DNA of 64,000 nt from Escherichia coli (GTDB taxonomy: Bacteria > Pseudomonadota > Gammaproteobacteria > Enterobacterales > Enterobacteriaceae): assembly GCF_003790525.1 (NCBI RefSeq), contig NZ_CP033636.1; one strand, 5' to 3'. The position numbers and the translations under genes were made by a program. Each line of letters starts with the position of its first letter. Position 1 is the stretch's first letter. The notes beneath the pieces were generated by a model, which was not told the origin of the DNA, searched no databases, and saw nothing but the letters and a program-made list of their open reading frames with translations. Below, one piece after another: positions 1,038 to 43,324 of this stretch.

Positions 1038-1216
1038 CATTTGAGATAGTTCGTTCGCAGCCAGGAAAGTAACTTTCACCTCAAGTGTGACCCTTACTAC
1101 CTCATTTATGAGTAAACCCCCCCTCTGATATGTCGAAAATGCTCATTTATACGAAAATAGTTTCTCTTCAGGTGTGATGTAATTACTGAGAATTCTCCCT
1201 GAATGGAAGGCAACCG

Positions 1217-1420
1217 ATGAAAATGTTTTTTACCCCTTATGTTCGTATCGTTTTCTATTTTTGCGCATTGATTTTTATTGTTTACAGTTTCAGTGATTTT
1301 TTCCAGGGCGTCCCTGACAGCACCTTCTTCAGTGCGGTCATCATGCTACTTGTTATCGGAACCATTGTTGCCCGGCATCTGGATCGCAAAAAATCTCTCA
1401 AAAATACTTCACAGATTTAA
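1217..1420 (+). CDS. small hydrophobic membrane protein (67 aa)
   Basis: ORF track; two hydrophobic stretches; GGAAGG upstream of ATG. Confidence 0.4.
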   Translation: MKMFFTPYVRIVFYFCALIFIVYSFSDFFQGVPDSTFFSAVIMLLVIGTIVARHLDRKKSLKNTSQI

Positions 1421-1474
1421 GTTTCAACTCAGGCCACTCTCGGGTGGCTTTTATAATTTAATAAGGACCGGTTC

Positions 1475-1699
1475 ATGCATAACCACGAAATTCAGACCAT
1501 TGCTATATTTAGTGCCCAGTATAAAAACATCGAAGATGCTGAAAATGCAGGTGCTTTATATTCTGTAGATATTGAATATCCGATGACACTAAATGATTTA
1601 TCGCGGCTTTGCGACTCTATTGCCGAAGCAGTAGGTGTGCCTGGCGGCGTCAAATACCAGTTCGTGTCCCAGCCGGAAGCGCATGAAACCAGCTTCTGA
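1475..1699 (+). CDS. hypothetical protein (74 aa)
   Basis: ORF track; AAGGA upstream of ATG. Confidence 0.35.
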   Translation: MHNHEIQTIAIFSAQYKNIEDAENAGALYSVDIEYPMTLNDLSRLCDSIAEAVGVPGGVKYQFVSQPEAHETSF

Positions 1700-2161
1700 T
1701 AACCAGTAACCAAACTGCCTAAAAGCAGGTGCAAAGCCATGAAACAAACAAAGTCTTCTATGTCACGTATTGTGCAGCTGTACGACGGGAGCCGATACGG
1801 AAACTGCGAGCAGGCTGATAACGAAGGAGAGCTTTTTACGGTGGTGTTGAATAAGCCTTCGCAGATCGATGACATCCGTAAAATCGTAGACACAACCGCC
1901 GAAGTACTTGGCAAAGCTTTGCCAGTACTCCTCTTATAAAGCTTACATCCGTGAAGGATAATTACGGTCTTACTACTTTCAGTTTTTCATTCCAGTGCCG
2001 TCCATTTTAATTTATCGATTTTAAGCGGTCGGCGCTATTTCATCGTTTCTTTTCCGACTGTAATTCCTTATATATAGGAATATTTCAAAGAATTTTTCTC
2101 AGGTTATTTGTGGCGGGATGCCAGTTGTTATAATGATTCCACATAATCTGGAGAGTTAATC

Positions 2162-2473
2162 ATGATCACATCTCTAATGAATTTCCGCGATTTAACCGGA
2201 GAGGCAGTCATCCAGGCGCGGCAATGCGTTATTAATGCGGAGATCGAAGCGGCCCGGGAAAAGGTAATTCATGCTCGTTCGTTATTCGAAGCGGGTATAC
2301 ATAATGTTGTAAACGGTAGTTCTGGCATTAAGGCTGCGGCAGCACATTTTCTGGTGATAAAACGTTTACAGACTGACACTCGGTATCTGGATGCGGTTAT
2401 CACTGATAACCTTTGCATGTTTTCTCCTGAGGGTTATCTGTATCTGTTTATGCAACAGCGTTATATGCGATAA
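2162..2473 (+). CDS. hypothetical protein (103 aa)
   Basis: ORF track; GGAGAG RBS 7 nt upstream. Confidence 0.4.
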   Translation: MITSLMNFRDLTGEAVIQARQCVINAEIEAAREKVIHARSLFEAGIHNVVNGSSGIKAAAAHFLVIKRLQTDTRYLDAVITDNLCMFSPEGYLYLFMQQRYMR

Positions 2474-2847
2474 AACAATGTGTTAGGGAAGTATCTTGCC
2501 ATTAAAAATATTAAAAAGGTGACTTGATGAAACCATTTGGACTTGCCGGAAAACCCCGGCCCGAACCTTGCGGCTGCTGCTGGTATACCCGTGAGGACTG
2601 CCCTTACGTCAGCGCAAAATAGATCTATCGCCGCAGGCAGCGCAAGGCAGAACGCCAGCGTCAGCGCAGCACCATTGTGATGGCCGTTTCTGAATTTCGC
2701 TGACTTCTTCTGGAAATATCATTTTTTCTCCAGAAGAATTTTAAAATAAAGGGAAATCTCTTCACGGGTATCTGATGTTTATTGTTTATGGTAAATTGCG
2801 CCACATTAATTTTTGTGGCGCAGTTCGTGTTGGCTTAAGGATATAAT

Positions 2848-3129
2848 ATGAAAATCAGCCAGCTGGAATCCGGGATGCAGGTTTGGTCTGTAACCCGTAC
2901 CAAAATGGGAAATACCACCATTACAACGGTCATTGTCCACCCCGTTGTCATTATAGAAATTCATGATAATCATGTGATTGCTCGCTGGAACGGCAATGCA
3001 CCACGTCGTTTTGGAGAAACGGCTATCAGGGGCTGGAAGAAGGAGAAGCCCCTGCTTGTCCGTGAACCTTTCGGAAATGCTCGCCTGGCCACCCGGGCTG
3101 AAAAAGCCGCTATGCAGGAAAAAGAGTAA
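2848..3129 (+). CDS. hypothetical protein (93 aa)
   Basis: ORF track; AAGGA RBS; inverted repeat CTTCTGGA-N14-TCCAGAAG lies upstream at about 2706-2737. Confidence 0.4.
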   Translation: MKISQLESGMQVWSVTRTKMGNTTITTVIVHPVVIIEIHDNHVIARWNGNAPRRFGETAIRGWKKEKPLLVREPFGNARLATRAEKAAMQEKE

Positions 3130-3344
3130 TACCCCTTTTAGCATCCACAATTTCAACGTCCATCTGCCTTTAACCTTGCCTGTTAATAACGGAATCCTTT
3201 CTGACTGGCCGGATCCCACGCATAACCTGAACTGTTGGCTAACCGTCTTACAGCCAAATTCCCTCCTTTATCTGGCAGGAGTGCGTCCGTGAGCTCTGTA
3301 TGATCTACGTGTTTGTTCAGTAGAGCACATAACAGGAGTGGGGT

Positions 3345-3950
3345 ATGACTGAATTAAATAAAAGCCCGTCCGGTTTTTCCGGAGCTGATGTCAGTAAAGA
3401 ACAGGCTGCCATAAGGGCACTTGTAGAAAGAGTAGTGACCAACTATCGCAGCCGGACAGCACCTGATCGGGTTCAAAAGGCTTCGGTAGCGTTTAATGGG
3501 GGATTAATCCTGACCCTGATGCTGGCCTTGTCGCTATTGGGCTACCTTGTGGCGGAATTGTTCAGGGGGTATGTTGCGGATAGTTCACCCTATGTGCCTG
3601 GTCTAAGTTATTCGCAATTTTCGATGCTGATGATCGTTGAGCTGTGTCTATGCTTTCTCGCATGGTTTTTGGTTGTCACAGGGGACTATCCCCGGCCGTG
3701 GATATTTCAGGTAGTCCCGATGGAGCAGTACTGGTTCTTTGACGAAGTGGATGACGACGATCTTGCCCGGCTTTCCTGTAACCCTTACATCAAGCGCTGG
3801 CTACTTGATGAAATGTCCGGTATTCATCGACTGACCTACACGAGGCTGCATGATCGACTGGAGCGCATCTGTAATATTCCATCCCATCTCGAATACAGCC
3901 GTATTCAGGCACATAAGCTTTCCCTAATCAACGGAACCAGTGCCTCCTGA
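3345..3950 (+). CDS. hypothetical membrane protein (201 aa)
   Basis: ORF track; AGGAG RBS; two long hydrophobic segments. Confidence 0.45.
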   Translation: MTELNKSPSGFSGADVSKEQAAIRALVERVVTNYRSRTAPDRVQKASVAFNGGLILTLMLALSLLGYLVAELFRGYVADSSPYVPGLSYSQFSMLMIVELCLCFLAWFLVVTGDYPRPWIFQVVPMEQYWFFDEVDDDDLARLSCNPYIKRWLLDEMSGIHRLTYTRLHDRLERICNIPSHLEYSRIQAHKLSLINGTSAS

Positions 3951-4282
3951 TCCTACCATTGCATCCGGAAATTAAACGGGCAGGAACTGCACTGTATGTT
4001 CCGACCAAGCAGCTGCCCGTTACCCTTTTCTTTAGTGTAAAAAGACTGTCTCCGACAACCGGAAGTGACTCATGTCAAATAAATTATAAATCAATGATTT
4101 ATGCAGGCAGGGTGTTTGGCTGATCAGGGCAGAGTGATATAATGACGCTGGTGCTGGAGGCTTTTGCCCCAGCCAGCGGTAACACTGTTTGACTGTGGTA
4201 AAAGCAGAAAGCCCCGAGTAATTTTTCAATTAACCTGTACTGCACCCATTTTGTTGGACGATGAAATGGAATAGCCCCTGAT

Positions 4283-4804
4283 ATGTCAAAGCCAAAATAC
4301 CCTTTTGAAAAGCGCCTTGAAGTCGTGAATCACTACTTCACTACTGATGATGGTTACAGGATCATCTCGGCACGTTTTGGTGTCCCCCGAACCCAGGTCA
4401 GGACATGGGTTGCCCTCTATGAAAAACATGGAGAAAAAGGTTTAATTCCCAAACCTAAAGGTGTTAGTGCTGATCCTGAGTTGCGTATTAAGGTCGTGAA
4501 AGCGGTGATCGAGCAGCACATGTCCCTTAATCAGGCTGCTGCTCACTTTATGCTTGCTGGTAGTGGTTCTGTAGCCAGGTGGCTGAAGGTTTATGAAGAG
4601 CGCGGAGAAGCTGGTTTACGCGCGCTCAAGATTGGCACCAAAAGAAACATTGCAATATCAGTTGATCCAGAAAAAGCGGCATCAGCATTGGAGCTGTCAA
4701 AAGACCGACGCATTGAGGATCTTGAAAGGCAAGTTCGATTTCTTGAAACGCGGCTTGTGTATCTAAAAAAGCTGAAAGCCTTAGCTCATCCCACGAAAAA
4801 GTGA
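4283..4804 (+). CDS. insJ: IS150 transposase OrfA (InsJ, 173 aa)
   Basis: Protein MSKPKYPFEKRLEVVNHYF... recognised as IS150 OrfA; A AAA AAG slippery motif at about 4765-4771. Confidence 0.85.
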   Translation: MSKPKYPFEKRLEVVNHYFTTDDGYRIISARFGVPRTQVRTWVALYEKHGEKGLIPKPKGVSADPELRIKVVKAVIEQHMSLNQAAAHFMLAGSGSVARWLKVYEERGEAGLRALKIGTKRNIAISVDPEKAASALELSKDRRIEDLERQVRFLETRLVYLKKLKALAHPTKK

Positions 4805-5652
4805 AAGTACTCAACGAGCTAAGGCAGTTTTATCCTCTTGATGAGCTTCTCAGGGCTGCGGAGATACCGCGCAGTACGTTTTATTACCATCTAAAGGCTC
4901 TCAGCAAGCCTGACAAGTATGCGGACGTTAAAAAGCGTATTGGTGAGATTTATCATGAGAATAGAGGCCGATACGGATACCGTAGGGTAACGCTGTCTCT
5001 TCATCGAGAAGGGAAACAGATTAACCATAAAGCTGTTCAGCGCCTGATGGGAATCCTCTCACTGAAGGCAGCGATTAAGGTCAAGCGATACCGCTCTTAC
5101 AGAGGAGAGGTAGGGCAAACCGCCCCCAATGTTCTCCAAAGAGATTTCAAGGCTACGCGGCCAAACGAGAAGTGGGTTACCGATGTTACTGAATTTGCAG
5201 TCAATGGGCGCAAGCTGTATTTGTCTCCAGTAATAGATCTCTTCAACAACGAAGTTATTTCTTACAGCCTTTCGGAAAGACCAGTGATGAACATGGTCGA
5301 GAATATGCTCGATCAGGCATTCAAAAAGCTTAATCCTCACGAGCATCCTGTTCTGCACTCTGACCAGGGATGGCAGTATCGTATGAGAAGATATCAAAAT
5401 ATCCTTAAAGAACATGGTATTAAACAAAGCATGTCCAGAAAAGGCAATTGTCTGGATAATGCTGTGGTGGAGTGTTTCTTTGGAACCTTAAAGTCGGAGT
5501 GTTTTTATCTTGATGAGTTCAGTAATATAAGCGAGCTGAAGGATGCTGTTACGGAATATATTGAATACTACAACAGCAGAAGAATTAGCCTGAAATTAAA
5601 AGGTCTGACTCCAATTGAATATCGGAATCAGACCTATATGCCTCGTGTTTAA
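4801..5652 (+). CDS. insK: IS150 transposase OrfB (InsK, 283 aa), expressed as OrfAB fusion by -1 frameshift
   Basis: Overlaps insJ stop by 4 nt; integrase-core sequence recognised as IS150 OrfB. Confidence 0.85.
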
Positions 5653-5693
5653 CTGTCCAACTTTCTGGGGTCAGTACAACCCGAGGCCCCTGT

Positions 5694-5909
5694 ATGCTAG
5701 TCACACACAGCGTAGCCTCTTGCCTGCTTAAATGCAAGGAGAAGAAGGCCATGAAAATGCCGAACCAACCCATTGTTTTGTGCATATTAATAGTTTGTTT
5801 AACGCTGTTGATATTCACCTGGCTCACACGAAACTCGCTTTGCGAGTTGCGGATGAAAGACGGAACAAGGGAGGTATTTGCTATCCTGGCCTACGAATCC
5901 GGTAAGTAG
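5694..5909 (+). CDS. mok: Mok (modulator of killing) frame, N-terminal in-frame extension of hok
   Basis: 71-aa ORF whose last 52 aa are the Hok peptide; KCKEKKAMK junction resembles R1 Mok/Hok arrangement. Confidence 0.6.
5751..5909 (+). CDS. hok: Hok/Gef-family type I toxin (52 aa)
   Basis: [52 protein letters not shown] matches Hok family signature (LTR..LCE....G..EV.....YE). Confidence 0.8.
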
Positions 5910-5916
5910 CTGACAA

Positions 5917-5941
5917 AGAGGGGGGCAACCCCCCTCTTTTC
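5917..5941 (+). terminator. rho-independent terminator hairpin after hok
   Basis: AGAGGGGGGC-AA-CCCCCCTCT followed by TTTT. Confidence 0.6.
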
Positions 5942-5977
5942 AGGGTGTGGATTAGTATGCCATCGGCACCTTTTGAA

Positions 5978-6014
5978 AGGGTTCCTCTAAAGCGGAGGAA
6001 CCCTTTTTTCTTTT
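5978..6014. terminator. second hairpin with U-tract (tandem or bidirectional terminator)
   Basis: AGGGTTCCTC-TAAAGCG-GAGGAACCCT followed by TTTTTTCTTTT. Confidence 0.5.
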
Positions 6015-6546: not shown

Positions 6547-6576
6547 AAGGGTAAAATGACAGGCGATACCTGCCGT

Positions 6577-6933: not shown

Positions 6934-6986
6934 GGTTGCTTTAAATTATTCTGGAGTTCGTCTGTTATAAATGCTGCCGTGATCTG

Positions 6987-9503: not shown

Positions 9504-9516
9504 AAAAGTAACTTTT
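9504..9516. promoter_or_regulatory. palindromic motif AAAAGTAACTTTT (candidate operator) upstream of ParB-like gene
   Basis: One of 13 dispersed copies of AAAGTWACTTT; about 215 bp upstream of the ParB-like start. Confidence 0.4.
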
Positions 9517-9629: not shown

Positions 9630-9642
9630 AAAAGTTACTTTT
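9630..9642. promoter_or_regulatory. palindromic motif AAAAGTTACTTTT (candidate operator) upstream of ParB-like gene
   Basis: Second copy, about 90 bp upstream of the ParB-like start. Confidence 0.4.
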
Positions 9643-20307: not shown

Positions 20308-22388
20308 TGAAACTTCCTTAGAAATTTATTAAGATTTTTGATATCGAGATTTTGACGCAAAGTAACTTTTCCGGCCTTCTTGAAAAGCATTTCCGACAGA
20401 GTTGTGTTTGGCTTCATTTGTTTCTCAGCAACAGCAATAGGGATTTGGCCTACAACCTTCCTGCCATCTTGAAGCCTGGCAACTATGTGAAACATAGGGA
20501 CCTGACCCAAGAGATCCTTTGGAATACTCTCTTCTAAAGTTGTCTGCTTTCTTTCTGAGATTGAACCTGAGAAGTTATTATGCGGCAAAGATGTTTCTGA
20601 ACCGGTCGTATAAGTGACCATATTTGTGCTTATCGCACTCTTACCAAAGTTCTCTACAACAAGCGTCTGAGTAGGAGTATCGTTGACTCGCAAGCTTATA
20701 TAATTGTTGCAGAGCCCCGTAATTCGATTGGCAGTTTCAACACTTGCCGCAGCAATAAAGTCGGAGATGGTTTGGGTGCAAATAAACAGTGCAATTTTCG
20801 CTGCACGACCCTGCGCCAGAAGGTTAATCATAGGGTTGTTAATGGCTGAGTGTGCCTCATCAACAAAAATACTTATCCTGGAATTAGCTGACATATCACC
20901 ATCCTGAGCGTTGTAGCGACTACCGGCACAGGAGGTCAGATCTGACATTATTAATTGAGAAATAGCAGCTGCTGTATCGGGGTTTGAAAGGCCATCAAGC
21001 GAAATGTATAGCACCCCGCCAGTGCTGAACATCCCTTCGCTTGTTACAATTTCTCTTGATGATACTGAGTTCGGGTTAGGAGATAAAAGCTCATTTAAAG
21101 GTTTTTCAATGAGCATATCGAAAACAGGCATAATACCTGCGGTCATTTTAGCCATATGCTCTGGGTCGGACATTGAGTAATCAATAAGCTGGGAAACAGT
21201 ATCTAACCAGTCTATTTGTTCGGACCCCTCGTAATTCATGAAATGAGCCGTAAACCATTCAGCGAGACGCTTGAAACGTACCGGCAAGGTTTCGTTAGCG
21301 ACGTACTTAACTTTTTCGGTCCAGACATCGTAACCATAATATCTCGCGTAACATGACTCCATTACCTTGACTGTAAGATTCACAATAGACATGTGGCTTT
21401 TCATGTTCTTGTGAATCAGATAAATAGAAGGCTTTTTCTCTATGTAAGAAAGCCCGGAAATCACATTGGAAACGAGAGCCTTGGCATACTGAACGAATGG
21501 GTTAACCTCACCGGGAACTGTCACCAAGCTCAAAAGACGAGATGTTAGGTCAGAAACATTAGTATAGGTGTTGCAGACATCAATACAGACCGAAGATGCT
21601 GGCTGGCCAGGATGAAATTTATAGAAAGGAAGACCGAGGGTCTTAGCCTCTTCCATTAGAGATTCTCGCCACTCTGCATCGTTCTTTGGATCTATGACAA
21701 CAACAACATGACCAAGATGAAGCATGCTAATGCTTAGTAAACGCTGTAGCACCGTTTTCCCGGTACCCACGTTTCCGGTTATCAGAGTATGACCAAACCA
21801 ATTGTCTTCAGTTACAAATATGGGTTCCCTACGTTCCACAGCAAAAATTGCATTGCTGCCGCCCATCTTACGAGCCATTGCGTCAAAATGTCTCTTAATT
21901 GGGTTGAAGACGAATGGCAACTCGATCTCACGTTTATCACTGGAGAGGTTAGCTATTTGATATGCCCGATCCGCATGTTCCGGGCCCCACTCAAACCCAT
22001 CACAAAAATAGGACTTTCGCTCGGGTATATCCTTATTTTTATTTTGATAATCCTGAACCAGTTGACGATACTTTCGCTCATTGGAGAAAAAGTTACTTTT
22101 GTTAATTACACGCAGTGAATCAAGACTAACGAACATGAAATGTCGCTTGAATACACGCCAATGAGCCATCAAGAATGGCGCTGCTGTTTTGCAACGATAA
22201 AGGCACAGCAAAAAAAGCAATATTGAGGTGAACAGAACTATTGGGGCGATGTCCAGTCCGTCTGAAGAAAGTCCCATATAAAGCATAGAAACCGAACAAA
22301 TCAAAAGTATTGAGGCACTACGATACTCAAGAATAGGCCGATAAAAATTCTCTTGTGCATGGAGGTTAGTCCTCTTCGAATCTGACAT
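20304..22388 (-). CDS. traG: type IV coupling protein (TraG/TraD/VirD4 family), IncHI TraG-like (694 aa)
   Basis: Two N-terminal TM helices, Walker A ITGNVGTGKT, Walker B-like ISIFVDEAHS; directly downstream of relaxase. Confidence 0.65.
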   Translation of the reverse strand: MSDSKRTNLHAQENFYRPILEYRSASILLICSVSMLYMGLSSDGLDIAPIVLFTSILLFLLCLYRCKTAAPFLMAHWRVFKRHFMFVSLDSLRVINKSNFFSNERKYRQLVQDYQNKNKDIPERKSYFCDGFEWGPEHADRAYQIANLSSDKREIELPFVFNPIKRHFDAMARKMGGSNAIFAVERREPIFVTEDNWFGHTLITGNVGTGKTVLQRLLSISMLHLGHVVVVIDPKNDAEWRESLMEEAKTLGLPFYKFHPGQPASSVCIDVCNTYTNVSDLTSRLLSLVTVPGEVNPFVQYAKALVSNVISGLSYIEKKPSIYLIHKNMKSHMSIVNLTVKVMESCYARYYGYDVWTEKVKYVANETLPVRFKRLAEWFTAHFMNYEGSEQIDWLDTVSQLIDYSMSDPEHMAKMTAGIMPVFDMLIEKPLNELLSPNPNSVSSREIVTSEGMFSTGGVLYISLDGLSNPDTAAAISQLIMSDLTSCAGSRYNAQDGDMSANSRISIFVDEAHSAINNPMINLLAQGRAAKIALFICTQTISDFIAAASVETANRITGLCNNYISLRVNDTPTQTLVVENFGKSAISTNMVTYTTGSETSLPHNNFSGSISERKQTTLEESIPKDLLGQVPMFHIVARLQDGRKVVGQIPIAVAEKQMKPNTTLSEMLFKKAGKVTLRQNLDIKNLNKFLRKFH

Positions 22389-25300
22389 TATAGGTTCCCA
22401 GCCTCTTTCAGGTTATTGATAATTCGTTCAATGTCCACTTTCGCCCGGTCTGATGCGGCCAGCAAAGTAGGCATGTTAAATGCATGGCATTTTGTATTGA
22501 TCACAGCACCAGAATTAACGAGGTACTGAGGAAGCTTATTGAAAAGATCTTGAGCCTCTAACTGCGACCCAAATTTTTCCACGCAAGATTGGGTCAGATA
22601 GAGAGTATTAGGAGTACTTACCATAAATCTGTTTTTGCGCTTTCTTTTAAACGCCACCTCCATTTTGGACAGAATTTGATGCAGTACTGACGCAATTTCT
22701 ACAAATTCAAGCTCTGTAACGTCACCTTCGCTTATAAGCGAGAATTCACCATTTTGGTCTGATTCAGTAGTTGCAAAGACTTTACTGTTCAGATTGTGAC
22801 CAGAAACAGGTGATGCTGGTTTTTGTACTTCTGCTTTGTCCGATGATTTATTCCGGTTGCGCTTGGGATTTTGTTTTTCTACCGGTGCTGTTGGGGCGAA
22901 CAGTCTGGCCAGTGCTGGCGAAAGATGATGCCCCTTAGCGTCTGTGGGCGCATGCTCTCCATTTGATTCTTCAAGTACAGGAGGTAAGGCGGGCTCTTCA
23001 CTTGCCATCACACTGGTTGCGGCTGCTTCGGTCTGGGAATACACAACTTCAGCTGGTGGTGGGCAGTTACCCTCAGTATCTGGTTCTGAGTTTTCTTGTC
23101 CTACAGAAACATCCATAGAGCGTTCAATCGTACCCTGGGGATCAGCGTTCTGTTCTCGGTTAAGTTCTGGTAATTCTGACGGCTCGGGGAGAAGCTTTTC
23201 ATTATGGACCGAAGAGCTTGTTGCACAACTACCGACTTCTGGCCGAGAAACACTAAGCTGTGTGAAATCGGTATAATCAATGATCTCATGCTCTTCATCT
23301 TCTTCCTCAAAAAGATGTTGATAATGTTCATATTCCACAGCCTCAGTTTTCAGCGGACCAGTCGCGGATGCACTATCGGTTCCATGATATTCCACGTCGC
23401 CAGAATGTTCTTCGACTGCATTTACACGTGGGGGAGGCAGCTCAAGCGTTTGCTTTGGACGTGGGGCAGAGTTTTCAACAGAAGACTCATCATTAATCAC
23501 TAATGCCTGATACATAGAAGTATTGAAAAGTGACTTTAAAGTTGTTGGCCTTCTTGGCTCATGATAGGTGAGCTGGAACCCGGCGCAGTTATCGCCGAGC
23601 TGGACTAAACGCAGATCGTCAATGTCCCTTACTATCCACATTCCATCGAGAGAGCCTTCTCTGAATGTCAGTTGGAAATAGGGCTCTTCACTAAATGCTT
23701 TTTCATCTAATCCCGGCAGCAATGCCATAGTGGCATCTATGTTGAGGTAGGGGACAGCATCTACACACACTATATAGTCATTGGAAAGTGGAGCGCTTAA
23801 AAGGAGTTCATGAAGTTGGTTGACCAGGACATGGGATTCCGTGTCCTTTGCCGATTCATCTTCACTTTCTTCTATATCAGGAATGACAGGATCAGCTGCT
23901 TCCTCACCCTCAGATTTAACTATCTGCGTGTCATTATCAATTTCATTATCACTTTCGGCTTTCTTCTCAAAATCGTCGGATGAGCCTTCATTTTTCTTAG
24001 AATGTATATCAACATCAATAGAGGCAGTGGAGCGGCCTAAATCATTAACCTTAAGAACAGCCGTCTCAACAGTATCAGTAATTTTAGTTATAGCGTCCCG
24101 ACCGGGCACTGGTCTTCTGTATTCAGTAACTGTTTTTTGCTCGTCAATGTAAATAAAGTCTTTATTGGCATTAACGCTAAAAAGACCCGGCACTGAGTCA
24201 GGGATTTTATAGGAATCAAAGATTAAACCAATCCACCTTAGCTTAAGAAGGTTATAGAATTCTAGTTTCCCTATCCCATTTCTAAAGATGTTTGATATTT
24301 CGTTTTCCGAATAGATACCCGGAATGAAGTAGTGAACGACACGCTCATCATCATAGGGCTCGACGTAACCACGTTGAACTAGGGATTCTACCAATACCGT
24401 CTTACCAGCCTCTCCCTGAGGGAAGTTATATTTATGTAATTCGAAATCATTGAGAACAAAATCAAGGAATGCGTTCTCGTTAAGGTATACCTCACCATTT
24501 ACGATAATGATGTGCATAGGCTTAGCATTGTAATTGTTGATATTGATACTGGTAAAGTTGTGCTTGATGGTACTAATGGCCCTTGCTGCTGCATCATTAG
24601 AACGCAGACCCATGATAGGGTCACGTAAAACATTAAGGTCTGTACCAGTAGAATAGAAATCAGCGGTCCTCACGCATTTAGACAAAAAGTCATTCCCATC
24701 AGTATAAACGTTTAGGGCGGTGATCATTTTTGAATAAACACGTTCTTTATTTACCCGATCCAAAAATGCAAGACATACCGGGTTTAGGATTCGCTCAAGG
24801 AAAACGCTGGACCAGATATTATGTTGATTATGAATACGCTTTCGCCAGTGGATTTCGTATTCAACCACGTCATTTTCACGTGCCCAGTCAAGAAGACTTT
24901 GTGAGCTTGGCGTCCAAATGATCGGACTAGCTAAATTCAGGCTTACAATATCGAGATCGTAAACCTTTCCGGCATCATGGACTAAACCACAGATAAACGC
25001 AGCATAGAGATATACTTTTCTACGGACTACTTCTTCATCTTGATATCCGATTGGTCTCAGTTCTGAGTGATGCGCATTTTTTAAAGAGAGTATGGCCACT
25101 TCCAGGCTGTGAGAAAGTAACCCACCAATACCATTATGATGATGATTTTCGGAAGCTGGCAAAAGATGTATCCAGCGAACATATTCAACCAAGGGCTTTA
25201 ATACTAAATTAGTAAATGTATATGCATCGTCCCTGATGTCGCTATCGCTGATAGCTAACATCATTGAAATTGAGTGCAGCTTTTCCCGATACAGAGACAG

Positions 25301-26763: not shown

Positions 26764-27030
26764 GACGCCTCCTGATGTGAAATTACTATACCGGAGGAAA
26801 TTTCCGTTTTTTTTCACGAACAGAAGATTTTTGAATGCTCTTTGATGAGGGAATTGAACAGATGTAATGCACTCGCTGTTTCCCCCATTCGGGAGGGGCC
26901 TTCAGAAACAGTAACAGCGAGTTTAGCCTCACTTCCATCGCTACCCTCTAAAGTTACTTTTGAGGGAATGACCATTGTGGATTATTGCTTTTGATAATGT
27001 GCATTGCTCTATTAAAGTTATACATATATC

Positions 27031-27194: not shown

Positions 27195-27521
27195 TAAGCA
27201 TGAGGTTGATGAAAAGTAAAAATGTCAGTTTATGACGGTCAGTGAAAGACGTCGTTATTCTAATCCAACGTTGGGAGGGGCTGGATTTAGGTTTTTTTTT
27301 AATCGCTTCACATTTCGTTAGCATGCGAAGAAATTTTGATAAAATTCTGGTCAGTTTGGTTAAAAAGTGTTACAAGTAAGCGGTGTGGTTGAAGGGATAG
27401 ATTTAAGGCTTATTCAAGCCTTAAGAAAATACTAAAAGTTACTTTTCACCCTACCGAACACCTAACAAAAAATCCATGTTGAAGATTTGAACAATTGTAA
27501 TGGCGCAAGGACAATCAGCAC

Positions 27522-28322
27522 ATGTCAGAATCTGATAATTTAACTCGTAGCTTACTCGGTAAACTTTTCCGCACTGAGATTTCGCTTATTCGTAGTTACC
27601 GTGCATTTTTAATGTTATTGCCTGTGCATGGATCTTCTGCATATCAAACTGGGACTCCTCTTCTCCAGCGTCGCCTATTTGGGAAAGGATTTAGTACAGC
27701 CGCTGATTTAGCTTTTGAAGTGGAAACACGTCCAGGTAGTTTTTTGGTTCCGCGTACACTCGGAAAGGAAATTACATGGGAGAGGTTTTTTTCTGCGGTC
27801 TTGGACGGTGATTCCAATGTAATTCGTGAATATGATACAAATGATATTGACTATGGTATTTACGATGCCGGTGAAAAAGTGACTTTTCTGAATGGTACAG
27901 TGGATATCTATAATCCCAAGAAGATTCATGAGTTGCGTTCTAAATGTGTTGATATACAGAATGACTACTTTATGCAGGTGTTCTTTATCTCAATGCTCGC
28001 ACCAGAGTTTGTAAGTGTTTTCTTTGGTTTAAAACCAACTACAGCTGATGCTATTAAAGACATTGGTTATTCATCGTTAAAAACAATTAACGATGTCGTT
28101 CTTTTCCCACGTACAATTGCTTTCTCACAAGGGCATATTGAAGAGAGTGTTTCACTTAAAACGAAAGTTTTTGCCTGGGCTTATGAATTGTCTGCTGACA
28201 TCCGGTTAGGAAAAGTTAGTGATGATTTGATGGAACTATTACGTTATGACACTATGTTCACCAGTCACCGTCAGGATGTGTTCAACACTTTAACAAATAA
28301 AGTTATGTTAAAGGATTATTAA
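27522..28322 (+). CDS. hypothetical protein (266 aa), possible transfer regulator (TrhR-like?)
   Basis: ORF track; first gene rightward of oriT-like region; identity not verifiable from sequence alone. Confidence 0.4.
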   Translation: MSESDNLTRSLLGKLFRTEISLIRSYRAFLMLLPVHGSSAYQTGTPLLQRRLFGKGFSTAADLAFEVETRPGSFLVPRTLGKEITWERFFSAVLDGDSNVIREYDTNDIDYGIYDAGEKVTFLNGTVDIYNPKKIHELRSKCVDIQNDYFMQVFFISMLAPEFVSVFFGLKPTTADAIKDIGYSSLKTINDVVLFPRTIAFSQGHIEESVSLKTKVFAWAYELSADIRLGKVSDDLMELLRYDTMFTSHRQDVFNTLTNKVMLKDY

Positions 28323-28323
28323 T

Positions 28324-30476: not shown

Positions 30477-31881
30477 TGCCGTTTTCAACTTCAAAAAGTT
30501 ACTTTTGTCTCTTTCTGTTTGTGCTGCAATTTTAGCCCCGACTGCAAATGCAGACAACGCAATGCGTAACATTTTCAATGGCATGATGACGTCTACCAGC
30601 CCGGCCACCTTTTCCACAGCAACCCGTACAGGCATAGTTGGCGGGTCAATGTCTTACCGAACAACAAACGTTAATACCAACCTTGTTTCCATGTCGTTTC
30701 CAAAAGCTTCTGTCGGTTGTAATGGTATTGACGTTTTTCTTGGGTCCTTCAGCATGATCAACGGGGACCAGCTTGTGCAGGTGGCCCGTGGTATTGCCCA
30801 GGGTGCGGCTATCTATGCTTTTAACGTTGCTGTTTCAGCTATTTGTGCTGACTGTGCTGCAACGATTAATGACATCCAAAACAAACTGCAAGCGCTAAAT
30901 AAATTTGCGAAAGATTCATGCAATGCAACTTACTCTTTCCTTTCTGAAAACGTGGGTACGCCAAGCCAGTTCGCTAACTCAGTTAGCTCTGGACCAGCCT
31001 CAATTCTGGGATCGATTAATGGTCTCATTCCTGATTTTGGCTCATCGATGACAAAGTCACCTGAAGCTGTCACTTCTCAGGTTAAAGCAAAGGATCCCGA
31101 AGAGTTCGCTGAAAAATTCAGTGGTAACCTCTTCTATATGTCGTTCATGGATATTGATAAGGGAACAATGAACATCGGAGGGGTAACGGAGTTATCCGGT
31201 TATAAATTGGCAGAACAACTTATGTCTCTCGTGGGTACTGTCATTATCAACTGGGATAGCAAAGGCGAAAAAGCGGGAATGGAAGTCCGCCCGTCTACCA
31301 TGACTGTCACGGATTACATCATGGGGCCACCAGCTGGCGGATCAATTAAAATGCTCAAGTGTTCTCCGGCACCAGATCCATCATCCCCACGAAAGGCTCA
31401 GTGCCTTGTCATGTCAGAAGTTAATGACGGTGGTTTTAAGGGATTGAAGGATACCATTTCTGATCTTCTTTTAAACGTACAGAAAAAAATCATCAACGAC
31501 GTTCGTGTTTCAGATGATGAATTACGCATTATCTCCTATATCGGCATCCCGACCATTATCGACTCTTTGCAAACATTCGAAGCACCGGAAGGGTACGCAT
31601 ACATTCAGGACATAAGCACTATTGCTGCGACGAGCCTCGTAATCAACATGTTGCGCCAGGTTGAGGCCAAAATTTCAACCATGAGCATACCGAGTGAGTC
31701 GCTGTCGGGTAAAAGGGATGATCTCAACCGATTAACAGACAATCTCTCAAAACAGGTTAAAGCCGCCTATGAGCTATCGCACAGCCAGGTCGGTACCAGC
31801 TCGGACGTCATTTCAACCTGGGATAACCGTCGCCTGCAACGGAAGGCTTTCACTGAAAGTATTCGTGGCACACGTAACTGA
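30466..31881 (+). CDS. trhH: F-type TraH-like pilus assembly protein (TrhH-like, about 471 aa)
   Basis: Start reassigned to ATG at 30466 giving signal peptide MRSNAVFNFKKLLLSLSVCAAILAPTANA; overlaps trhF stop; stop TGA is the first 3 nt of the IS629-like element. Confidence 0.55.
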   Translation: MRSNAVFNFKKLLLSLSVCAAILAPTANADNAMRNIFNGMMTSTSPATFSTATRTGIVGGSMSYRTTNVNTNLVSMSFPKASVGCNGIDVFLGSFSMINGDQLVQVARGIAQGAAIYAFNVAVSAICADCAATINDIQNKLQALNKFAKDSCNATYSFLSENVGTPSQFANSVSSGPASILGSINGLIPDFGSSMTKSPEAVTSQVKAKDPEEFAEKFSGNLFYMSFMDIDKGTMNIGGVTELSGYKLAEQLMSLVGTVIINWDSKGEKAGMEVRPSTMTVTDYIMGPPAGGSIKMLKCSPAPDPSSPRKAQCLVMSEVNDGGFKGLKDTISDLLLNVQKKIINDVRVSDDELRIISYIGIPTIIDSLQTFEAPEGYAYIQDISTIAATSLVINMLRQVEAKISTMSIPSESLSGKRDDLNRLTDNLSKQVKAAYELSHSQVGTSSDVISTWDNRRLQRKAFTESIRGTRN

Positions 31882-37254: not shown

Positions 37255-37336
37255 TTCATAAACTTAGCTGATTTCTGTACAATCTCGTTCTTTATGTAGT
37301 AGATGTTCCGGCTGAATAGGCACTGAGACACAGGAC

Positions 37337-38626: not shown

Positions 38627-38733
38627 GAGACCGGCATGTTTTCTTCCAACTGTGCAATGCTTTGACCCGGGGCAGAAATGGAGAAGCATAGAACTGATAA
38701 TGCGGGCATGCTCTCCGTAAAAGTTACTTTAAT

Positions 38734-39300
38734 TCAGGAAGCCCAACGTTTCATAAGCAGATGATACCTGGTGTTAAGAGCTGCAAGATCAGATTCGGTG
38801 AGGCCGGTGTAATAATTGGTTTTTTGCAAATGTGGATAACCGACCGGGAATAATGATTCGTCGTCATCAAGGCAGATAAATGCTTTAACTCGATGTGAAA
38901 ATACAAAGTCCTCACACTCAGCAGCCCGCACACCTGACTGATTAGGTTTTAAATATACCGAATCGGTAGCACCTATGACTTTGTCTCTATAAGGTAGCCG
39001 GAAAAGAGATTTCAGGTAAGTTATACTGGCACATTCACGCCACGAACTGGAGATGACAATCACCATGGAAGGGCATTTATCCAGTAATTTTTCCACCAAT
39101 GGCATTCGCTCAAAGGTTTCATTTTTGCACCTGTGACAAACCCCATCGAAATCTAAGAAAAGCACGACATGCGAATCAGGGAGAGGGCCCCATAAACCAG
39201 CTGTTGTTTCTTCAGGAACACATACTTCTTCATGAAGAGGGCTTTTCTGCATCAAGAAAGAAGAGAGAATCTTAAATATATTTCTTGCAGAAAAAGACAA
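38734..39300 (-). CDS. HAD-like hydrolase-fold protein (188 aa)
   Basis: VVLFLDFDGVCH matches HAD motif I (DxDG[TV]); downstream of transglycosylase gene. Confidence 0.4.
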   Translation of the reverse strand: MSFSARNIFKILSSFLMQKSPLHEEVCVPEETTAGLWGPLPDSHVVLFLDFDGVCHRCKNETFERMPLVEKLLDKCPSMVIVISSSWRECASITYLKSLFRLPYRDKVIGATDSVYLKPNQSGVRAAECEDFVFSHRVKAFICLDDDESLFPVGYPHLQKTNYYTGLTESDLAALNTRYHLLMKRWAS

Positions 39301-39382
39301 TTTATTACCCCTGAGTCTATGCGAATTTTTTGCGGGGGGGTACCCAAGCTACTCGATGATCTTCTGTAATATCAGGTTGAAT

Positions 39383-39922
39383 TTATTTAACAACAGGAGT
39401 CGGGTTTTGCTCCGGGACATTTTTAGCTATATGGCCATTGTATCGAGGAGGTTGTTGGGTCCATTGATAAAGCTCACCCATCCCGTTACGCTGCTGGATC
39501 CGGCGATTGTACTTTACCATGAAGTTAAATATGTACTTTGCACGTACCTTTGGGGTTTTGCTGTTGTAATCTGCAATCCCTTCAAACACATTGCCCTTGC
39601 GATCAACAATTTTTCTGTAGAGCCACCATGTTCCAACCCAGAAACTAGCGCAAGCATCGTAAGCCAGAACCCGCCACGTTACAGTCGGGAAATGCTTTTT
39701 TATTTCAGGCAGATTGGATGAGTTGATCTGCATCGGGCCAATATCATAAGTGCCGTTAGTATTCCTGCTGAAAGTACCAACCTTACCGCCTTCATTGTCA
39801 AACAACGTAAAAACCAGTTCGGCATCAATTCCGAAGAAGCGGGCGGCATCCGTAATGCACTGAGTGTAAATCTCATCAGGAACGGGAATAGGTTTCACAT
39901 CATCTGCTGGTGGTGTAAACAC
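39383..39922 (-). CDS. lytic transglycosylase (SLT domain), conjugation-associated peptidoglycan hydrolase
   Basis: YDIGPMQINSSN motif typical of SLT-domain proteins; GTG start with GGAG RBS. Confidence 0.6.
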   Translation of the reverse strand: MFTPPADDVKPIPVPDEIYTQCITDAARFFGIDAELVFTLFDNEGGKVGTFSRNTNGTYDIGPMQINSSNLPEIKKHFPTVTWRVLAYDACASFWVGTWWLYRKIVDRKGNVFEGIADYNSKTPKVRAKYIFNFMVKYNRRIQQRNGMGELYQWTQQPPRYNGHIAKNVPEQNPTPVVK

Positions 39923-40069
39923 AACGATTTCTCCACTGAATCTACGTTTTATCTATTCTCCCATATATCTATCGACTTTCTTTCGGCTTTACCCGTTGAT
40001 TTAAGCGTTTAAGCAAAATTCTGGAATTTTTGGGCGTGATAATATTAGTGCTCGATTCAAGGAGCATAA

Positions 40070-40819
40070 ATGAAAAAAATTATTAAGGCATCGGTATTAC
40101 TTCTTTCATTAAGTACCGCCTTCACGATGAATGCCGAGCCGGTTAATACAATGGTACTGCCAGATGCAGCCCGGGATAAGCTCAAAGCCATTGGGCTTTC
40201 AATCGAGCACGTCGAACCCTCGCCAGTAAAAGATATTTTTACGGTGATTTCCAGGGAGGGGGTAAGTTACGTGAGCAAAGACGGAGATTACATTTTTACC
40301 GGAAGCTTATTCCACGTGAAAGGTAAAGATGTGGTAAACACCACTGAGCAGGCCATTTTAATGGGCGTCCGGGAATTCGCATCCAAAACAAAATCCATCG
40401 ACTACAAATCACCAAACGAAAAATACCGGCTTGCTATCTTTACCGATATAACCTGTGGATACTGCCAAAAACTGCATCATGATCTGAAGTCTTATCTTGA
40501 TGCCGGTATTTCGATTAAGTTTCTTGCATTCCCACGTGCAGGACTGAACTCGGTAGTAGCCGGGAACATGGCCAAAATCTGGTGTTCAGCAAAGCCAAAC
40601 GAAGCTCTGGATGCAGCGATGAATCCGGTTTCAACTATCCCGGAAGGACGTCCTGATGAGGCTTGCTTAAACATTATCAAATCGCATTTCCAGGTGGCCT
40701 CAACAATCCCGCTGCAAGGTACTCCTACCATGGTGACACTAAGCGGCAAACCGCAGTTATTTACGGGGTGGCTGAGCCCGGAAAACCTGGTGACCCAAAT
40801 GGGCGCTGCGCAAAAGTAA
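40070..40819 (+). CDS. dsbC: DsbC-like periplasmic thiol:disulfide interchange protein (249 aa)
   Basis: Signal peptide; active site CGYC in thioredoxin-like context; stop codon embedded in AAAAGTAACTTTT motif. Confidence 0.65.
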   Translation: MKKIIKASVLLLSLSTAFTMNAEPVNTMVLPDAARDKLKAIGLSIEHVEPSPVKDIFTVISREGVSYVSKDGDYIFTGSLFHVKGKDVVNTTEQAILMGVREFASKTKSIDYKSPNEKYRLAIFTDITCGYCQKLHHDLKSYLDAGISIKFLAFPRAGLNSVVAGNMAKIWCSAKPNEALDAAMNPVSTIPEGRPDEACLNIIKSHFQVASTIPLQGTPTMVTLSGKPQLFTGWLSPENLVTQMGAAQK

Positions 40820-40843
40820 CTTTTCCGACTGTAAGAGGTGTGT

Positions 40844-41236
40844 ATGAAATCTACTTTACTGAGTACGTTAATGCTGGTTGCTGTAGGTGTACAGCCCGTT
40901 TTCGCTGCACAATGTCAGTACGGAGCCTGTGGAACGGAAAACGATCCAGGAATCGTATTTCTGATGTCATCGGTACAAATGGATCAAGGTGAACAACTAA
41001 AGGAACTCTCTGGTGTTGCGACCACAGGTGACACCATCTCTAAAAAGATGGAAAGCTACCTGGGAAATAAAAAGCTCAAGGTAAACACCGACAGTACCCG
41101 CAAGGGGCCGGGTAATACCACCATCAGGCCTACAGATGAGCTCGCCCCAACGAGGCAACTAAAAGTTATCCGGCCCGAACTGGTAAAAAATCCCGATTCG
41201 CAGCTCGTGGTAGCTTTCAATGAGCGCCTGGCCTGA
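40844..41236 (+). CDS. small secreted protein (about 130 aa)
   Basis: Start moved to ATG with AGAGGTG RBS; signal peptide MKSTLLSTLMLVAVGVQPVFA. Confidence 0.4.
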   Translation: MKSTLLSTLMLVAVGVQPVFAAQCQYGACGTENDPGIVFLMSSVQMDQGEQLKELSGVATTGDTISKKMESYLGNKKLKVNTDSTRKGPGNTTIRPTDELAPTRQLKVIRPELVKNPDSQLVVAFNERLA

Positions 41237-41269
41237 TTTATTGACTGAGAGCGTCCAGAAGGAAAAAAG

Positions 41270-41692
41270 ATGTCGATACTCAGTAACTTCGTCATCAGGG
41301 CAACGGGGATACCTGACAAAAAGTATCTCCGGGATCCCGTAATAAAACGTTGTTATGAACGTCTGAGTCGTAGGGTGCCTGCTCTAATGACGGGTTGGCT
41401 TCTGTGCATTCTGGGTTCAGGGTATGTCAGTATGGCACTGGAACAGCCTGATAGCACTGTGTTACTCAGTCTGCTGCTGTTGTATGTTATGTCAGGCATT
41501 TTACTGATGCAGTTCCAGTATATGTATTCAGAGCGAAGCATAGGCTACAAGTTCTACCTGGAAGTGCTTATGAATGCAGCCGCCAGTACTCAACATAAAG
41601 AACAGTTACAGTATCTAATCATTAATAAGCCCAATTCCATCACGATGGGCGATCTTTACCGACTTTATGATTTTAATGGGGGAGGGCGATAG
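41270..41692 (+). CDS. hypothetical membrane protein (140 aa)
   Basis: ORF track; two hydrophobic helices. Confidence 0.4.
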   Translation: MSILSNFVIRATGIPDKKYLRDPVIKRCYERLSRRVPALMTGWLLCILGSGYVSMALEQPDSTVLLSLLLLYVMSGILLMQFQYMYSERSIGYKFYLEVLMNAAASTQHKEQLQYLIINKPNSITMGDLYRLYDFNGGGR

Positions 41693-41751
41693 CCACGTTT
41701 ATGTGCGTGTCCAAAAGTCACTTTTGAACATTCTCTTCCCGCCGTCTGCTT

Positions 41752-42363
41752 TCAGTTCCAGGGGATCACTGCAACATAATTTCCGGAACGCAGCGGCGCA
41801 TCAAATTTATCAGTAAAGGCGTCGATCATTGCTGAATAAGCAATGCTGTCTGACGGCACAGGTGCATTGCTTTGCATACTCACTTTCAGAACCTGCTTTG
41901 CTCCTTTCGCTGACGGGTATACCTCGACATCCAGCTGTCGCATATAGTGCATCTGCGACATCGTCTCAGTGCCTATTACCCCATCGACCGGCCTGTAGTC
42001 ATAGTCAGTATGCGATTCGCCATGCTTGTCAGTTCTCGTTGTCTTTTTATCTACAACGTAGCCTGTCACCCCAGTAAGAAGCTGCTCGCTATACTGCATG
42101 TTCTCCTGTGAGCTGCTCATTCGGAACCTGAGCACATAATCTGGCTGGTGAGTGGAAATAATGACTCCTTTTTTTGCTAATCCATCAGCAAAACGGCCTG
42201 AAAACATTCTGGACTGAATACTTTCGTCCGGAGGGACTATCTGAAACCTTTTATTTGTAACAGGACGAGGCATTAGATCGTACGCATCTACCTGGTTTGC
42301 GAAATGATATCCACAACCACTCAAAAGCATTGCGGTTGTGAGTATAAAGCCCTGCCTAATCAT
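41752..42363 (-). CDS. lipoprotein (203 aa)
   Basis: Signal peptide with lipobox LLSGC. Confidence 0.45.
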   Translation of the reverse strand: MIRQGFILTTAMLLSGCGYHFANQVDAYDLMPRPVTNKRFQIVPPDESIQSRMFSGRFADGLAKKGVIISTHQPDYVLRFRMSSSQENMQYSEQLLTGVTGYVVDKKTTRTDKHGESHTDYDYRPVDGVIGTETMSQMHYMRQLDVEVYPSAKGAKQVLKVSMQSNAPVPSDSIAYSAMIDAFTDKFDAPLRSGNYVAVIPWN

Positions 42364-42469
42364 CCTTTAATCTCCAAAAAGCATTGTTTCACGAATAATT
42401 CCGATTTACCGGGCCAGTATAATCCATCGCAGGTTAATAACTAACAGGCTGAAAAGCATAAAGGTAGCT

Positions 42470-43279
42470 ATGTCTAAAGAATTTTATTTAAAACCGATGG
42501 CCACGATTTTAATTTCTGCGGTAATTGCTACCGCTGCCTCGGCGTTAATCGCGGCAACTTATTTTAAACCGAAGGTGCTCAGTGAGGAAGAAATTGGCAA
42601 AATTGCCGCTACTTACCTGGTAAAAAATCCCCATTATTTAGTGGAAGCAGGTAAGGCGCTGGAAAATCAGAACGTAAGTGCCTCAGTGGAACGAATAATT
42701 CCATATGCGCCAGCTCTGCTGGATACCAAGGAGACGCCAAACATCGGCCCGGATGACGCCGACGTCGCGGTAATCGAGTTCTTCGACTATCAGTGTATTT
42801 ACTGCATGCGGGTTACACCTGTTGTTGAATCGGTAATGAATCAGAGCAAAGATGTAAAATTCTTCTTTAAAGAATTCCCGATTTTTGCCGGTTCAAAACC
42901 TGTATCTGCCATGGGGGCCGCTACGGGTCTGCACGTCTATCAGAATTTCGGTGCTGAAGCCTATCGTAAATACCACAACAACCTGATGGCTGTGGCTCAT
43001 ACCTTCATGACCTCTCAACGCAAATTCGAACTCAGCGACTTTAATACTGTGGTGGATAAGTCAGGGTTTAACAGCACGTTTTCTGACAGGGAAAAAAACC
43101 GATATGAAAACGTGATCTCCGGCAACATGCAGCTGGGCGAAGCGCTTGGGATCACCGGCACACCCGGCTTCATCATTATGAATATGAAAAAGCCGAATGC
43201 GGCGACTACCACATTTATCCCCGGGGCTATGGACGCAGCAACTTTGCAGGGCGCAATCGAAAAAGCTCGCGGGGCCTAA
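42470..43279 (+). CDS. DsbA-like thioredoxin-fold oxidoreductase with CxxC (269 aa)
   Basis: N-terminal hydrophobic segment; FFDYQCIYCMRV active-site context; stop embedded in AAAGTTACTTT motif. Confidence 0.55.
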   Translation: MSKEFYLKPMATILISAVIATAASALIAATYFKPKVLSEEEIGKIAATYLVKNPHYLVEAGKALENQNVSASVERIIPYAPALLDTKETPNIGPDDADVAVIEFFDYQCIYCMRVTPVVESVMNQSKDVKFFFKEFPIFAGSKPVSAMGAATGLHVYQNFGAEAYRKYHNNLMAVAHTFMTSQRKFELSDFNTVVDKSGFNSTFSDREKNRYENVISGNMQLGEALGITGTPGFIIMNMKKPNAATTTFIPGAMDAATLQGAIEKARGA

Positions 43280-43324
43280 AGTTACTTTCACTTTTGATGA
43301 GTACGGCCATGCCGGTCATGGCCG

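Follow-up and report, generated by a model that had tools for sequence, protein, structure and literature searches.

The window studied here, a stretch of 64,000 nucleotides (64 kb) of the Escherichia coli contig NZ_CP033636.1 (assembly GCF_003790525.1), shows 100% identity with numerous E. coli and Salmonella plasmids of the IncHI2 group (IncHI2A, MOBH, MPF-F) that carry mcr-1. Its backbone holds transfer genes, several genes for thioredoxin-fold and related proteins and, at 9732..10916, a gene for an orphan ParB/KorB-fold protein, whereas a transposon/integron resistance region occupies the last part, about 46.7 kb to 64 kb. Dispersed along the backbone are copies of a near-palindromic motif, AAAGTWACTTT (W standing for A or T), in which a sequence-only reading of this DNA had seen a candidate KorB-like operator network. 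The motif sites and the gene are listed below, the sites without strand, together with their counterparts in R27, the prototype plasmid of the IncHI1 group.

1066..1076, motif site AAAGTAACTTT, intergenic, about 146 bp upstream of the next small gene on the + strand
9505..9515, distal site before the ParB-like gene, its centre 222 bp before the ATG (R27 counterpart 218 bp)
9631..9641, proximal site before the ParB-like gene, its centre 96 bp before the ATG
9732..10916, + strand, orphan ParB/KorB-fold protein of 394 amino acids, R0104 in R27, candidate binder
15457..15467, motif site, intergenic, about 169 bp ahead of the gene at 15631
20359..20369, motif site within the 3' end of traD, which encodes the coupling protein, and 60 bp before the following gene; identical position in R27, 60 bp
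22089..22099, motif site in the 5' part of traD, kept in R27
23527..23537, G-centred site in the mobH relaxase gene; the mobH of R27 has no site
26950..26960, motif site of the oriT region, 192 bp ahead of the start of mobI/traH, as in R27 (192 bp)
27435..27445, motif site before trhR, 82 bp from its start (81 bp in R27), a conserved island in a diverged spacer
27876..27886, G-centred site inside trhR, kept in R27 with an A/T centre
30495..30505, motif site where a thioredoxin (dsbC-like) gene meets trhH, kept in R27
38720..38730, motif site between the 3' ends of convergent HNH endonuclease and HAD-domain genes
40813..40823, motif site over the stop codon of a thioredoxin-fold gene (40070..40819), kept in R27
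41714..41724, C-centred site between convergent genes; the R27 equivalent is a one-mismatch variant
43278..43288, motif site over the stop codon of a DsbA-family gene, between that gene and umuC, kept in R27

The window contains 12 exact copies of AAAGTWACTTT, where 0.01 are expected and at most one was found in 100 dinucleotide-preserving shuffles. The enrichment claimed earlier is real and had been understated. When the central base is left free, three more sites appear, at 23527 (G), 27876 (G) and 41714 (C), which brings the total to 15 sites with any centre, 1.23 copies being expected for all one-mismatch variants of AAAGTWACTTT. The positions given by the sequence-only reading were right to within one base, except that a site placed at 15466 is really at 15457 and that the two G-centred sites had been missed. 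All window copies of AAGTNACTT carry the outer A and T, i.e. they are the full 11-mer. The core of the palindrome is AAAGTNACTTT, and the symmetrised logo, a sharp palindrome of 13-15 bp, gives the fuller consensus gAAAAGTwACTTTTc (AAAAGTWACTTTT as the site sequence, of 6-1-6 architecture; AAAAGTTACTTTT is another written form of the motif DNA and AAAAGGTACTTTT a variant form). The centre of the logo is A or T in 89% of the sites and the information ends at 15 bp, and one-mismatch variants are just 2-3 times above expectation, the change being mostly at the innermost position. The last site of the window ends at 43288 and none is found beyond it, in agreement with the earlier statement that the resistance region is free of the motif. 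A half-site had also been reported at about 10951; it corresponds to GGTAACTTTTT at 10949-10959, 33 bp past the stop codon of the ParB-like gene, where the right half of the motif is indeed present but the whole differs from the motif by three mismatches.

The same distribution extends to whole plasmids. The complete IncHI2 relative pM160133_p1 (233,149 bp) carries 51 AAAGTNACTTT sites, the runner-up 5-N-5 palindrome being present 8 times, with no site in its 35-kb resistance region and only 2 in the tellurite-resistance region. In R27 (180,461 bp), with a backbone just 65-80% identical to IncHI2, 46 sites are counted and the runner-up palindrome reaches 4. Fully intergenic sites amount to 23 of 51 in IncHI2 and to 19 of 46 in R27, compared with 16% expected (P = 1e-6 and 4e-5, respectively). 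The earlier claim that sites lie in promoter regions is thus borne out for a part of them only, about 40-45% being fully intergenic and the others lying inside genes. The reach of the motif goes beyond the transfer genes and includes the replicon, the ter operon and arrays of small genes. Spacing along the backbone looks random (coefficient of variation 0.8-1.2), and on this measure a regular spacing of the sites was rejected. Other origins of the repeats were also discarded: a VirB-like attraction to AT-rich, H-NS-bound DNA, the GC content near the sites being about the plasmid mean; a miniature inverted-repeat transposable element or other mobile repeat, conservation stopping at 15 bp; and an RNA hairpin or terminator, since a 5-bp stem with a 1-nt loop cannot fold.

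Conservation of the sites in related IncHI plasmids had been proposed as a check, and it was found: BLAST aligns 23 of the IncHI2 sites to R27, and in 22 of these the ten specified bases are all retained, the central base drifting. In 16 coding sites, the third codon positions are identical in 44 cases out of 44, versus 313 out of 686 (46%) over 90 bp of flanking sequence (Fisher P = 5e-15), and the constraint therefore acts on the DNA and not on the protein. The distance from site to gene start in IncHI2 and IncHI1 is 82 and 81 bp for trhR, 190 and 189 bp for trhF, 192 and 192 bp for mobI/traH, 96 and 100 bp and 222 and 218 bp for the two sites of the ParB-like gene, and 301 and 302 bp and 140 and 138 bp for two further genes; these distances hold even where the flanking intergenic DNA is too diverged to align. 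The motif is a conserved, backbone-wide DNA site under strong purifying selection, fixed relative to gene starts. Its dyad symmetry and free central base fit a dimeric protein with a helix-turn-helix (HTH).

These properties bear on the idea that modification or restriction enzymes, or the Tus-like terminator protein of the plasmid, recognise the motif. IncHI plasmids do encode several orphan methyltransferases and a Tus homologue, and the core GTAAC is similar to a part of the Ter core of E. coli. We nevertheless find this idea scarcely credible, as restriction targets are normally avoided whereas the motif is enriched and conserved, Tus is a monomer acting on asymmetric 23-bp sites, some 50 bidirectional blocks would halt replication, and a perfect dyad with a free centre suits a dimeric HTH protein.

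The protein encoded at 9732..10916 has such a domain, with a match to Pfam HTH_ParB over residues 149-209 (E = 1.5e-5), the same domain being matched in 18 of 27 family members. The HTH region is aligned by phmmer to the HTH of Caulobacter ParB, TIGR00180 matches as well, and the ParB and Noc profile matches are weak. The layout comprises a predicted N-terminal ParB-like domain (FNTR, RQGxCRxR), the HTH, a disordered linker rich in acidic residues and proline, and a helical domain at the C-terminus. The AlphaFold2 model is confident over residues 13-250 (predicted local distance difference test score about 90 over residues 20-250), and its best match in the Protein Data Bank by Foldseek is KorB in the KorB-KorA structure 8qa9 (template modelling score 0.67). 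Structures of ParB and Noc in which the N-terminal CTP-binding domain is present come next; the alignments to KorB, ParB and Noc span about 230 columns, N-terminal domain included, with a probability of 1.0. Residues N48, R50, G99 and R102 are invariant in the 27 relatives, down to 22% identity, while box III is divergent; G99 and R102 form GxxR, the nucleotide-phosphate-binding motif of ParB, KorB and BisD (for BisD, PMC12409273). The label of ParB-like gene given earlier is consistent with all this, the model of the product having a ParB/KorB fold and motif sites lying upstream of the gene. The KorB family of Pfam is not matched by the window protein and is matched by 1 of the 27 relatives at E <= 0.001, and the identity to KorB in the structural alignment is about 19%. 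At residues 27-36 a conserved G-x-x-R-K-G-N-G-L-I is loosely like the LG(R/K)GL ParA-interaction peptide of canonical ParB, with the basic residue shifted.

No parA lies next to the ParB-like gene, the neighbours being small hypothetical genes. The parA-parB and parM-parR modules of IncHI are located elsewhere and the parA promoter region is free of motif sites; the ParB of Par1 was rejected as the binder, the region upstream of parA having its own 249-bp tandem array and zero motif sites. In pM160133 this array occupies 12504-15594, in between trhC and the parA-parB operon, with 12.6 copies of the 249-bp unit (73% matches) and no annotated gene, and is presumably the Par1 centromere region. 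Homologues of the window protein are encoded in 2402 PLSDB records, the close ones being confined to IncHI-like plasmids, and a profile search of 1.84 billion representatives returned only 476 relatives.

Within this rare family, the motif accompanies the gene. R0104-type genes have 1-6 exact upstream sites in nearly all lineages, one lineage having a one-mismatch variant only. IncHI2, IncHI1 and a plasmid of Yersinia have two sites, a plasmid of Leclercia has one, and five or six lie within 870 bp upstream in Klebsiella grimontii and in Klebsiella IncHI1B/IncFIB plasmids, one of the latter carrying 20 sites in 40 kb. In 7 of 8 R0104-type lineages the proximal site is found 96-125 bp ahead of the start, and the recognition helix S-E-Q-H-x-R of this type is invariant across 41 to 100% identity. 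Relatives of a short type, namely an IncC plasmid gene (32% identity) and that of a marine contig, are without the motif.

A second orphan ParB-like gene, R0042, is present in IncHI outside the window, at 227245-228408 of pM160133 (L006:27245-28408, - strand) and at 45191-46348 of R27, divergent from a dam methylase gene. It shares 32% identity with R0104 over the N-terminal domain and HTH. Upstream of it a one-mismatch variant, AAAAAGGTACTTTTT, is conserved 86-90 bp before the start in both IncHI1 and IncHI2. Outside IncHI, an exact site precedes R0042-type genes by 38-125 bp in L019 (a metagenome contig), L021 (Photorhabdus), L231 (125 bp) and L233 (114 bp, with another at 291 bp). The recognition helix of the R0042 type is far more variable than that of the R0104 type. 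In R27, R0042 is strongly expressed, and a temperature of 25 °C or mutation of htdA induces it together with the transfer genes (PMC7366339).

Taken together, these data lead us to favour, with moderate confidence, the reading of AAAGTNACTTT as the specific binding or loading site of a plasmid-encoded orphan ParB-family protein, most likely of the R0104 type encoded at 9732..10916. As far as sequence comparison goes, the motif is tied by phylogeny to the orphan ParB/KorB-fold family, and the R0104 type is favoured as the binder because of its several exact sites per gene and its invariant recognition helix. Such a protein would act as a dimer on the motif via its ParB-type HTH, and the sites at about -96 and -222 would let it repress the promoter of its own gene. 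By analogy with KorB (PMC11790492), VirB (PMC10770331), BisD (PMC12409273) and Noc, a nucleoside triphosphate, probably cytidine triphosphate (CTP), would be bound via GxxR, and the putative clamp could close at the ~50 sites, slide over the neighbouring DNA and modulate promoters at a distance. The expression of backbone operons for transfer, replication, maintenance and small genes would in this way be set plasmid-wide, the acquired resistance DNA being left untouched. The effect may be repression as with KorB, or activation and anti-silencing as with VirB and BisD, if these analogies hold.

Several results weigh against this reading. Over half of the sites lie within genes or at gene junctions, some of them between convergent genes. 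Scans for the sigma-70 consensus near the sites gave nothing above shuffled controls, with no recognisable promoter overlap, and the position of the sites relative to -35/-10 elements could thus not be fixed. Pfam ParBc is unmatched in all 27 family members, so that the N-terminal domain rests on the predicted fold. The recognition helices differ among proteins tied to the same core motif, with no covariation of residues and bases; helix/site covariation was accordingly given up as a means of assigning the binder, the motif core being invariant in all long-type lineages while the helices differ without pattern, and the paralogues are not told apart by it. According to Table S2 of PMC4853401, the R27 deletions Del7 (6 kb, containing R0104) and Del1 (containing R0042) were both viable and stable in E. 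coli; these stable deletions argue against an essential role in partition or in overriding kil functions, but in each of them the other paralogue was still present. Of the 19 R27 deletions planned in that study, deletion 18 is the only one described as unobtainable after repeated attempts. Finally, in a scan of genome contigs that returned just five loci and in which divergent R0104-type genes could escape the scan pattern, the motif-bearing Photorhabdus genome gave just an R0042-type gene, the motif-bearing K. grimontii genome giving only the R0104 type.

This Photorhabdus result, together with the sites upstream of R0042-type genes, means that R0104 may not be the binder, or not the sole one. 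The same mechanism could operate with the R0042-type paralogue as the binder, or with both paralogues recognising the site, an arrangement that we consider unlikely yet worth weighing. It would account for the exact sites just upstream of R0042-type genes in L019, L021, L231 and L233 and for the conserved AAAAAGGTACTTTTT in IncHI, and the high expression of R0042 and its co-regulation with transfer genes in R27 (PMC7366339) would suit it. It is at odds with the promoter of IncHI R0042, which lacks an exact site where R0104-type genes have 1-6, with a helix that varies while the motif does not, and with the K. grimontii genome.

The position of the sites raises another question, whether a ParB-like protein binds them mainly for DNA organisation, by a centromere-like or Noc-like positioning, by pairing or by marking of the backbone. 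Half of the sites being intragenic or between convergent genes, with about random spacing over the whole backbone, would agree with such a function, as would the clusters of 5-6 sites beside the gene and beside repB in Klebsiella plasmids and the precedent of IncC plasmids, which scatter 14 genuine parS sites on their backbone (PMC10954446). Yet neither paralogue has an adjacent parA, IncHI already has two partition systems, one of them with the 249-bp repeat array, the stability of R27 was left intact by the deletions with R0104 or R0042 as tabulated in PMC4853401, and the site-to-start distances kept to the base pair argue for a link to promoters. We therefore rate an organising function as the main role as quite improbable.

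An independent line of evidence for the ParB-family reading comes from phages. The phage contigs were chosen by the motif only, in an IMG/VR scan for two sites 90-120 bp apart. The 11-mer is present 68 times in a fully recovered contig of 47.8 kb, 31 times in 25.7 kb of a second, 32 times in 52.4 kb of a third and 9 times in a fourth. The corresponding loci are L089-L094 with L040 (IMGVR_UViG_3300050498_000031), L046/L189/L190, L049/L223-L228 and L069-L072; the density reaches one per 700 bp, and the sites are often just upstream of ribosome-binding sites. The flanks differ from those of the plasmids, being cTAAAGTwACTTTAg or tTAAAGTwACTTTAa. With their portal, terminase, baseplate, DnaB and primase genes these contigs are genuine phages, and INPHARED contained no relatives of them. 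A hidden Markov model (HMM) of the plasmid family matched an open reading frame (ORF) of the third contig at E = 2e-21 and another of the fourth at E = 1e-22, a site lying 31 bp before the likely ATG of the one in the fourth; in the first contig, of 68 sites, it weakly matched an ORF preceded by sites at 34 and 85 bp. With this HMM no strong family match came from some 200 further viral loci that have 1-2 chance sites, and a scan of viral contigs with a single protein found only the query itself. The family is so rare that its co-occurrence with the motif in phages is hard to explain unless its members recognise the core AAAGT-N-ACTTT. That phages share this core site and this protein family suggests a principle that holds for mobile elements generally.

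The phages also bear on the possibility that another sequence-specific protein, such as HtdA, TrhR, TrhY or a host transcription factor, binds the motif, the ParB-like genes being merely targets. The link between protein and DNA is indirect, HtdA, TrhR and TrhY are without recognisable domains, and sites flank their promoters, all of which would leave room for such a binder. The motif, however, extends well past the transfer genes and is found in phages that encode the ParB-like family and no other IncHI protein, the segments examined of the dense-motif phages sharing with IncHI no protein besides this family. No E. coli regulator with this consensus is known to us. We give this possibility little credence.

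A broader view of the phage and plasmid data can be offered tentatively, and we would not call it likely: the R0104/R0042-type proteins could be a widespread branch of ParB-like clamps that coat the whole plasmid or phage as a 'self' chromatin or transcription layer, rather than act on gene-by-gene operators. This doubtful extension would rest on the very dense shared core AAAGT-N-ACTTT, with about 50 copies per IncHI plasmid and up to 68 per 48-kb phage, about one per gene. If it is true, the layer in IncHI covers the backbone and not the acquired resistance DNA.

Returning to the reading of the motif as a ParB-family loading site, the closest comparison is that of KorB and its 12 OB sites (TTTAGCSGCTAAA) in the IncP-1 plasmids RK2/RP4. 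OB is likewise a 13-bp 6-1-6 palindrome with a free centre, at about one site per 5 kb of backbone, and is found at promoters, away from promoters, in genes and before the gene of the binder itself. The predicted IncHI fold also agrees, with its putative N-terminal NTP-binding domain, HTH, linker and C-terminal domain, KorB being the best structural match of the model. The IncHI operator, on the other hand, is AAAAGTWACTTTT and not TTTAGCSGCTAAA, its sites are four times more numerous, and the protein is only ~19% identical to KorB, unmatched by Pfam KorB and not its orthologue, R27 being stable without the gene. KorB has IncC/ParA and KorA or TrbA as partners, whereas the IncHI gene has no ParA/IncC or KorA-like neighbour. 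The KorB-like network proposed by the sequence-only reading is thus sound as regards selected, backbone-specific palindromic sites, the ParB/KorB fold, a density of about one site per 4-4.5 kb, like that of the KorB operators of RK2, and sites upstream of the gene itself; it fails as regards orthology with KorB and the presence of parA, and is weakened by the rival paralogue, by the half of the sites that are intragenic or convergent and by a gene that is dispensable, unlike korB.

Other systems are also comparable. The ParB of IncC/IncA plasmids, which has a KorB domain, binds 14 scattered parS sites (AAACTTTCACATGTGAAAGTTT) in large MOBH/MPF-F plasmids related to IncHI through their transfer system; these palindromic backbone sites are mostly intergenic and promoter-adjacent, including the promoter of the binder's own operon (PMC10954446). 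There a parAB operon supplies the binder, its partition ParB, and the binding was proved by electrophoretic mobility shift assay (PMC10954446), while the IncHI candidate is an orphan put forward from sequence, and the IncHI site is shorter and 3-4 times more frequent than parS. In the IncC plasmid pM214_AC2 (L025), ACTTTCACATGTGAAAGT is present 7 times (at 291, 3875, 4334, 9649, 12985, 24029 and 27444) and is the published parS; its arms hold ACTTT and AAAGT in the reverse of their order in the IncHI motif. The window protein has an IncC homologue at 19944-20882 of L025 ('parB-like regulator', 32% identical), which is not known to have a site. Noc of Bacillus subtilis, a top fold and profile match with about 70 Noc-binding sites, is similarly an orphan ParB paralogue without ParA and with many dispersed palindromes, but it is chromosomal, tethers DNA to the membrane and controls division. 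VirB of the Shigella plasmid pINV and BisD of ICEclc are orphan ParB-like proteins of mobile elements that load at palindromes and act on distant promoters (PMC10770331, PMC12409273), and BisD relies on the conserved GxxR (PMC12409273), which is invariant in the IncHI family. They differ in having few sites (two of 23 bp for BisD) in place of about 50, in the additional activator domain of BisD, and in VirB countering H-NS in AT-rich DNA, the IncHI sites not being AT-rich. A centromere of the parS or sopC type also differs, since the IncHI sites are dispersed, no parA is adjacent, and the R27 deletions, which included upstream sites, were stable. The IncHI network is best filed as one of the ParB-family type with dispersed sites, with unusually many sites, two paralogous candidate binders and a phage counterpart.

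The sequence-only reading knew of no such network described for IncHI, and our literature searches likewise found nothing on the motif, on R0104 or on an IncHI ParB-like regulator, although an early mention in the original papers on R27, R478 or the Tra regions is possible. To our knowledge, the known regulation of IncHI, by H-NS/Hha, HtdA and TrhR/TrhY, leaves a conserved network of about 50 sites unexplained. The motif and the orphan ParB-like family would, as judged from their sequences, point to an undescribed system of plasmid-wide control or organisation. If the sites are loading sites of a ParB-like clamp, the network would be the densest of its kind known on a plasmid, and the family a new branch of ParB CTPases beside KorB, VirB, BisD and Noc. 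IncHI plasmids carry mcr-1 and the multidrug resistance of typhoid and, in the form of IncHI1B hybrids, carbapenemase and virulence genes in Klebsiella. Given such a clamp, the system would provide one protein-DNA interaction, the disruption of which might disturb transfer, establishment or fitness cost.

Some further observations concern the replicons and the structure of the plasmids. In R27, four tandem copies of a variant, CAAAAGGCACTTTTC, are present at 38840-38968, 42-43 bp apart, between a repB-family replication gene and trhA. The matching region of IncHI2 has two exact sites (987 and 1772), and a Klebsiella IncHI1B plasmid has five exact sites beside repB (L026 1162-2419). The tandem variants of R27 and the sites beside repB may form a replicon-associated site cluster. 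In the Klebsiella IncHI1B-type loci L016 and L020, another palindrome, CCCCG-N4-CGGGG, is repeated 11-16 times in about 21 kb, near Cas6-like and helicase genes, and is probably a plasmid-borne array of clustered regularly interspaced short palindromic repeats. Compared with pM160133, the window has an IS3-family element at 4236-5677 (ORFs 4283..4804 and 4801..5652) and an IS1 element (768 bp) at 12031-12798, and pM160133 has an IS66 element at the place corresponding to about 14384 of the window.

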